Shown: positions 17,358 to 18,070, counted from the stretch's first letter. The stretch: 64,000 nt of DNA from GCF_988242995.1 NZ_OZ547043.1; one strand, 5' to 3'. Numbers and translations are program-made. The notes: a model not told the origin generated them from the sequence alone.

Positions 17358-18070
17358 TGCGGGCAGAATAAATATCCTCCGGCATAGCCGGAGGTTTTTC
17401 AAATGCGCCTGTAAGGCTCTGTTACCAGCCGCGCCCTAACAGGCGCATACGATCTGACATTTGCATTCAACTTCGTTACTTACGGCCCGTAAACGGGCTG
17501 CCCGGATATGGAATCGATAACTGCTCCCCCATTTTATCCTCTTCAAGCTGGTGCTTTATGTAGTCACGTATCTTCGCCGTGTTCTTACCCACCGTATCGA
17601 CATAGTACCCTCGGCACCAGAACTCCCTGTTTCTGTATTTGAATTTCAAATCCCCAAACTGCTCGTAAAGCATCAGACTGCTTTTCCCTTTCAGATATCC
17701 CATAAAGCCGGATACGCTCATTTTGGGTGGGATTTCCACAAGCATATGGATATGATCTGCGCAGCACTCTGCTTCCAGAATCCGTACGCTTTTCCACTCA
17801 CACAGCTTTCTCAAAATACTGCCTATCGCCCTACGCTTCTCTCCGTAAAACGCCAGTCTTCGGTATTTCGGCGCAAAAACTATGTGATATTTACAGTTCC
17901 AGCGGGTGTGCGCTAAGCTCTTTTCGTCCCCCATTGGGACCCCCTTTTGATTTCTTGTTTGACACTTGCAGTTGCCAGACCGCAAGGTGTTTTAACAAAT
18001 CAAAAGGGGTTTTAATAACTGGCTCAAAGCTGAAAGCTTTCCGGAACCCCCAGCCTAGCTGGGGGTTTTC
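17358..18070 (-). mobile_element. IS200-family insertion sequence (IS200/IS605 family); ends approximate
   Basis: Contains the IS200 tnpA ORF; the perfect palindrome cccccagcctagctggggg (18047-18065) is the characteristic left-end hairpin; a second hairpin cctccggctatgccggagg lies near the right end. Confidence 0.8.
17476..17937 (-). CDS. tnpA: IS200 transposase TnpA (Y1 HuH transposase)
   Basis: ORF track 17476..17985; start moved to MGDEKSLAHTRWNCKYHIVFAPKYRR, the canonical IS200 TnpA N-terminus. Confidence 0.9.
   Translation of the reverse strand, partial: PMGDEKSLAHTRWNCKYHIVFAPKYRRLAFYGEKRRAIGSILRKLCEWKSVRILEAECCADHIHMLVEIPPKMSVSGFMGYLKGKSSLMLYEQFGDLKFKYRNREFWCRGYYVDTVGKNTAKIRDYIKHQLEEDKMGEQLSIPYPGSPFTGRK

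Follow-up and report, generated by a model that had tools for sequence, protein, structure and literature searches.

A complete IS200 element in the tail of the fliC terminator upstream of fliA in Escherichia coli

A complete IS200 element of 711 bp (17367–18077, minus strand) lies between fliC and fliA in the window, the whole 64,000-nucleotide stretch of GCF_988242995.1 (NZ_OZ547043.1) that was analysed. It is a known element, an IS200 of the IS200 group of the IS200/IS605 family that carries tnpA only. We consider it very likely that a transposition-competent copy inserted here recently, choosing the tail of a terminator as its target, and that the insertion left the fliA promoter intact and is probably neutral. 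IS200 would have landed directly behind the fliC terminator’s T-run, co-oriented with fliC and fliA, at a position set by its own target choice. The element is expected to move as single-stranded DNA (‘peel and paste’, with a circular intermediate), its HUH/Y1 transposase binding the subterminal hairpins, and would insert 3′ of a short T-rich sequence, which in practice would be the tail of a Rho-independent terminator. The finding itself is minor: the insertion sequence is well described, this is a further copy, and its site is one that the target preference of IS200 predicts.

Gene order on the minus strand is fliC (487 aa, 18120–19583), the spacer, fliA (sigma-28, 239 aa, GTG start, 16525–17244), fliZ and tcyJ, with fliC defined by its open reading frame and fliA by its open reading frame and the annotation of matching genomes. 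The fliC and fliA flanks are 99.9% identical to those of O26:H11 strain 11368, ETEC H10407 and others, and the names of the matching strains point to an H11 fliC allele. Between the fliA start codon (17244) and the fliC stop (18120), the spacer (17245–18119) measures exactly 875 bp; without the insertion sequence it measures 164 bp in other H11 strains (for example, O26:H11 11368) and 320 bp in K-12 MG1655. Alignment to the empty site of O26:H11 11368 places the left end of IS200 at 18077 and the right end at 17367, the common prefix stopping at 17368 and the common suffix beginning at 18078, with a 2-bp ambiguity of the boundary from an AA common to element and target. The two flanks were also joined into a synthetic empty site and compared with E. 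coli genomes; 612 of these match it over ≥80% of its length, the best with 100% coverage and 99.9% identity. At the insertion point the empty site reads ...GGGGTTTTTT before and CTGCCCGC... after the junction, and the flanks are 99.9–100% identical to those of empty-site strains, so that the insertion is clean. No target-site duplication was found at this site: the occupied minus the empty spacer is exactly 711 bp, and the AA overlap is due to chance. Independent copies from chromosomes and plasmids align end to end with positions 1–711 and diverge outside. The identity of the element, its boundaries and the absence of a target duplication are established. An earlier note on this DNA had described a seemingly complete IS200 that lies after the fliC terminator and before the fliA promoter, with a 152-aa TnpA, a left-end palindrome at 18047–18065 and a spacer of about 875 bp, longer than in K-12. 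All of this is borne out, the K-12 spacer being both shorter and free of the insertion sequence; the span given there, 17358–18070, fell on a real element with its ends a few bases off.

The structural features of IS200 are described here in element numbering, with nt 1 at window position 18077, and all lie on the minus strand. The left-end subterminal hairpin AACCCCCAGC-TAG-GCTGGGGGTT (nt 11–33, 18045–18067) is an inverted repeat of 10 nt with 100% complementarity, and the palindrome CCCCCAGCCTAGCTGGGGG at 18047–18065 occurs once in the window, against 0.00 occurrences expected by chance. Together with the rest of nt 1–40, this hairpin has a predicted fold of −18.7 kcal/mol. A second stem-loop is predicted in the 5′ untranslated region (UTR) of tnpA at about nt 69–138, where the Shine-Dalgarno (SD) sequence AAGGGGGU is paired in a predicted fold of nt 60–150 (−36.0 kcal/mol). 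Both positions agree with the published map of Salmonella IS200, which has a terminator at nts 12–34 and a stem-loop at nts 69–138 (PMC4513863). In IS200 the left-end hairpin is a bidirectional terminator (PMC4513863, PMC5435999), and by analogy with IS608 it may also be the hairpin that TnpA binds. The left end plus the tnpA 5′ UTR (STnc490/art200 region, 17944–18067) matches the full length of the Rfam model RF01405 STnc490 (positions 1–124) with 146.4 bits (gathering score 56, E = 3e-31). We note that this match is on the tnpA-sense strand of the same segment and that the strand of the model may differ from that of the RNA; art200/STnc490 is described as antisense to the tnpA 5′ UTR (PMC4513863).

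The tnpA gene (nt 144–602), an open reading frame running from 17934 to 17476 on the minus strand, encodes the 152-aa HUH/Y1 transposase quoted in the earlier note (MGDEKSLAHTRWNCKYHIVFAPKYRR...), with the HUH motif H61-I-H63 and the catalytic Y125, the residue whose Y125F mutant is catalytically dead (PMC4513863). It is the single long open reading frame in the tnpA orientation within the 711 bp, and tnpB is absent. Towards the right end, an internal inverted repeat with 14-nt arms of 93% complementarity (nt 630–675, 17403–17448) forms in the predicted fold of the last 90 nt (−44.7 kcal/mol). It is followed by the right-end subterminal hairpin CCTCCGGC-TAT-GCCGGAGG (nt 684–702, 17376–17394), found by a terminator scan and terminator-like on both strands, with a predicted fold of −15.9 kcal/mol for the last 40 nt. 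The sequence ATATTTATT lies 3′ of this hairpin and ends the element, leaving the hairpin nine bases from the right end. The two terminal hairpins are alike, each with a G+C stem of 8 bp, a loop of 3 nt and, directly 5′ of its foot, GAAAA(A). Terminal inverted repeats are absent, the ends of the element, GTGCACAG... and ...ATATTTATT, being unrelated.

Membership of the family is supported by protein models and by nucleotide identity. TnpA scores 144.3 bits against NCBIfam NF033573 (cutoff 55) and matches Pfam PF01797 (Y1_Tnp) at model positions 2–121 of 121 (E = 8.2e-37). Assignment as a REP-associated transposase (RAYT) was rejected, the score being 29.8 bits where the cutoff is 80. By the ISfinder naming convention, a copy is called IS200 at ≥90% nucleotide or ≥95% amino-acid identity to the reference IS200. 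With a Salmonella IS200 copy (locus L123) as the reference, the element is 91.9% identical over 704 nt, in agreement with the ≥90% over about 700 bp that the earlier note had looked for, and TnpA is 96.1% identical, with six substitutions that include R123. Identity to IS1541A of Yersinia pestis is 86.5% over the full length, and the best copies in complete RefSeq E. coli genomes reach 99.7%. Copies annotated in RefSeq E. coli as ‘IS200/IS605 family transposase’ at rimL/ydcH, yecA/tRNA-Leu and sseB/sseA are 99.4–99.7% identical over 711 bp, whereas copies in other assemblies and gut metagenomes (L086, L090–L093) are 100% identical; the RefSeq copies occupy other insertion sites and are without the substitution Q123R. 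This change from the consensus (codon CAG to CGT, two adjacent base changes, 17566–17568) lies two residues before the catalytic Y125 and is the sole feature peculiar to this sub-lineage. None of the 5,426 complete RefSeq E. coli genomes has the codon change. The exact R123 protein was found at ≥7 other loci in other assemblies and gut metagenomes, and because these loci differ, the sub-lineage must have transposed; three of these loci account for the five copies with 100% identity over the full 711 bp. At two IS200 loci beside narP (L087 and L089, from two assemblies), the right flank is common and the left flank is ccmH in one and purL in the other, a signature of rearrangement by recombination between IS200 copies.

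The target of the insertion is the intrinsic terminator of fliC (18078–18100, minus strand), identified by a terminator scan and the empty-site alignment, with its stem at 18084–18100 and its T-run at 18078–18083. The terminator, CCCCGCCACCGGCGGGG-TTTTTT, has a predicted folding energy of −14.6 kcal/mol, and the left end of IS200 begins directly after its last T. A marginal Rfam match to anti-hemB at 18076–18149 (18.6 bits, E = 0.44) was rejected, being the fliC terminator itself. Target sites were tabulated for fetched IS200 copies with ≥40 nt of left flank, giving 19 distinct sites (9 in E. coli and 10 in Salmonella) that form a convenience sample and not a census. At all 19, a hairpin rich in G+C is followed by a T-run with TT at its end and then directly by the left end, so that IS200 starts a few bases 3′ of a terminator stem. 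The 40-nt left flanks of these sites have predicted folding energies of −12.5 to −21.9 kcal/mol, with a mean of −16.9 kcal/mol compared with −6.5 kcal/mol for the 40-nt right flanks. Intrinsic terminator tails were thus the target of every IS200 insertion in this sample. The preference for terminator tails rests on this 19-site tabulation, and support for it from the literature is indirect. Insertion of IS1541 downstream of terminator-like signals was reportedly noted by Odaert et al. in 1998. Terminator-tail targeting also fits both the family rule, by which a guide beside the left-end hairpin reads a short sequence and the element inserts 3′ of it (PMC3201880, PMC2806898), and an IS1541 insertion in Yersinia between pheL and pheA, that is, after the attenuator terminator (PMC3082878). 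By the same rule, the AAAA 5′ of each hairpin foot may pair with a TTTT or TATT target, and the right end of IS200 itself finishes with TATT. The GC skew of the window plus strand is negative (−0.027), and the fliC–fliA region is one that we take to belong to the left replichore, as in K-12; the tnpA-sense (top) strand would therefore be on the lagging-strand template. This is the placement that the single-strand model expects (PMC5027513), and orientation relative to GC skew is the only feature here that is consistent with a single-strand mechanism. That mechanism has been demonstrated for IS608 and ISDra2, other members of the family than IS200, to which it would extend by analogy (PMC5027513, PMC3201880).

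The insertion appears to be confined to this strain. None of the 5,426 complete RefSeq E. coli genomes carries it at fliC–fliA; the best coverage of the 875-bp spacer among them is 84%, made up of an IS200 copy elsewhere and a chance-similar terminator. The element as such is common, with IS200 somewhere in 2,641 of the same genomes (49%), a near-full-length copy in 2,063 and a median of 2 places (maximum 35) per carrier genome. Transposition of IS200 is notoriously rare, a point against the preferred reading. An exact search of metagenome contigs with a 32-mer across the right-end junction gave 0 matches. Window positions 1–25000 are 100.0% identical to the closest complete genomes, those of the swine strains cq9 and U90, apart from exactly 711 bp missing there (record span 24,289 bp), and the insertion must therefore be very recent and strain-specific. 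It can serve as a clean strain marker, missing from the 5,426 complete genomes and from cq9 and U90, which otherwise agree with the window here. Further along, positions 25001–50000 (the fliE–fliR, dcm and dgcQ region) have their best match, at 99.2%, in strains other than cq9 and U90, which points to a mosaic formed by recombination, its boundary lying somewhere beyond 25 kb.

The 122 bp upstream of fliA (17245–17366, minus strand) are retained and identical to the empty site, with which a prefix of 124 bases agrees exactly. The fliC terminator ends at the same position, 122 bp from fliA, in H11 strains and in K-12, and because this holds without the insertion sequence, the natural fliA promoter must lie within these 122 bp. 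The sigma-28 promoter motif of fliAZY, TGCAGAAACGGATAATCATGCCGATAAC, is at 17269–17296 (motif and FlhDC peak coordinates from PMC4183435). In K-12, the centre of the FlhDC ChIP-seq peak is 64 bp upstream of the fliA start codon (PMC4183435), equivalent to about position 17308 here and 59 bp from the end of the element. A distal FlhDC half-site may lie about 20 bp from that end, a motif-based guess made with a published consensus that is too loose for placing half-sites. A promoter scan found no sigma-70 consensus in 17150–18200, a result that says nothing about FlhDC- and sigma-28-dependent promoters or the weak tnpA promoter. The fliA promoter region is intact, unchanged in sequence and in extent. 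Most likely the insertion is a neutral passenger, which we take as an assumption. Little transcription from fliC or tnpA into fliA is expected because the element carries hairpin terminators at both ends. Against neutrality, the element replaces the DNA just upstream of an FlhDC-dependent promoter, so that upstream contacts or DNA curvature could differ. A regulatory effect on fliA is possible and would probably be small.

The best-surviving alternative is that the insertion is regulatory, either because two or three added hairpin terminators reduce read-through into fliAZ from fliC, a very strongly transcribed sigma-28-dependent gene, and so damp a positive feedback, or because the altered upstream DNA changes FlhDC activation, with altered motility or flagellin as the outcome. 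We regard this as unlikely. Consistent with such a role, three terminator-like hairpins now stand in series on the fliC/fliA strand (that of fliC itself and those of the left and right ends, by terminator scan), in Salmonella the left-end hairpin halts about 85% of the transcripts that reach it (PMC5435999), the element ends 59 bp from the FlhDC peak-centre equivalent, and an independent IS200 is fixed at an analogous place in serovar Typhimurium (PMC6415898). Extra insulation of fliA by the IS200 hairpins, which the earlier note had raised along with altered promoter architecture, is a physically reasonable possibility, but it is limited because only transcripts that escape the fliC terminator can be affected, and that terminator is itself intact and strong, with its stable predicted stem and six T’s. 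In genomes without the element, nothing but the same 122 bp lies between fliA and the terminator, indicating a self-contained promoter, and terminator-tail targeting, seen at every tabulated site, fully explains the recurrence in Salmonella. No IS200 was found within 3 kb of fliA at any of the 80 loci listed from Enterobacteriaceae representatives other than Salmonella LT2 and the E. coli representative, which, with its absence from fliC–fliA in the complete E. coli genomes, argues against a selected hot spot. Selection could account for the serovar-wide fixation of the Typhimurium copy, and so could drift. Were the insertion to alter fliA expression, it would offer a natural test of insulation in the flagellar feedback loop, and nothing here indicates that it does. 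A broader version, in which E. coli and S. Typhimurium convergently rewired the sigma-28 feedback loop by insulating fliAZ or by placing the IS200 5′-UTR RNA under flagellar control, is more doubtful still.

Less plausible again is that this copy acts as a source of regulatory RNA, its 5′-UTR small RNAs (sRNAs) and antisense art200 being coupled to the flagellar late genes via read-through. The whole 5′-UTR/art200 region is intact, as the Rfam score indicates; the tnpA 5′ UTR yields sRNAs regulating invF and about 70 genes in Salmonella (PMC5435999); and the element is directly downstream of a gene with a class 3 promoter. However, the 5′ UTR is preceded by two terminators, that of fliC and the left-end hairpin, no trans target is known in E. 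coli, and every IS200 copy, of which carrier genomes have the median number given above, would make the same RNA. Finally, misplacement by the assembler of an element that is multi-copy in many strains, at a junction seen in no other genome or metagenome contig searched, is hardly credible given base-perfect junctions on both sides, a left end set against a terminator T-run exactly as in 18 further genuine copies, an orientation that fits the replichore and flanks that rejoin to a perfect empty site.

The preferred reading remains a recent and probably neutral IS200 insertion into the fliC terminator tail. Several other features were observed in the window. The fliC 3′ UTR (18078–18119) is 42 nt long here and in other H11 strains compared with about 198 nt in K-12, where the extra 156 bp of the spacer correspond to two REP elements in the fliC 3′ UTR (locus L005, 1913–2107). 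This region of K-12 is annotated as the sRNA FliX/FliX-S (PMC10578931), and with a 3′ UTR of 42 nt, most of the K-12 FliX sequence is therefore without counterpart here. Matches to the sRNAs DsrA (39371–39457, minus strand, 102 bits) and RseX (47860–47949, plus strand, 97 bits) and a tRNA-Leu/Cys/Gly cluster at 7271–7573 were also present. A tRNA-Ser (57545–57634, minus strand) and a tRNA-Asn (58626–58701, plus strand) mark a region, extending to position 64000, that contains sequence present in many copies per genome (median 14 places) and falls about 7 kb short of its length in the strains that match best. Downstream of the tRNA-Asn, related genomes carry an integrase pseudogene, a gene with an integrase domain and a pseudogene for an Ig-like adhesin.

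The closest known parallel is in Salmonella. The earlier note’s mention of an IS200 copy near fliA there is correct: a serovar-Typhimurium-specific IS200 in the fliB–fliA spacer gives a 1000-bp instead of a 250-bp amplicon (PMC6415898), and locus L123 has fliB, tnpA and fliA in this order on one strand. This locus was found through the Salmonella TnpA sequence, exact look-ups of FliA and FliB having returned only empty fliB–fliA spacers. With IS200 the spacer measures 907 bp and without it 196 bp, which again gives 711 bp for the element, and the left end follows the fliB terminator directly (...GCGCATCCCGTTTATT at the end of the flank and GTCTATGG... at the start of the element). Between fliC and fliB, another Salmonella locus (L096, 327–1582) holds a different insertion sequence with a 418-aa rve-type transposase. 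The two IS200 copies share a length of 711 bp, a left-end terminator hairpin at nt 11–33, an SD-sequestering stem-loop, a 152-aa TnpA with HUH motif and Y125, and a right-end hairpin, and each comes straight after the terminator of the gene that precedes fliA, in the orientation of fliA. They differ in distance from fliA (159 bp in Salmonella and 122 bp here), in the first 7–8 nt of the left-end tip (GTCTATGG in Salmonella and GTGCACAG here) and in the upstream gene, the Salmonella copy following fliB, a gene absent from E. coli, and the window copy following fliC; the former is fixed serovar-wide in Typhimurium, whereas the latter is strain-specific. With 92% identity, different left-end tips and different upstream genes, the two insertions are therefore independent. 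Their recurrence at fliA can be put down to a terminator lying close upstream of fliA, with no need for selection, and terminator-tail targeting shows why IS200 adjoins fliA in both E. coli and Salmonella Typhimurium.

More distant relatives show how far the shared organization extends. IS1541 of Y. pestis, present there in over 50 copies (PMC5435999), has the same organization as the IS200 described here and is more divergent in sequence. IS608 and ISDra2 resemble IS200 in their HUH/Y1 transposase and subterminal hairpins, in lacking inverted repeats and target duplication, in inserting 3′ of a specific short sequence and in a top strand that lies on the template for lagging-strand synthesis (PMC3201880, PMC5027513, PMC2806898). 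In contrast to IS200, which is without tnpB and has a T-run target (TTTT/TATT), these two elements carry tnpB and target TTAC and TTGAT.
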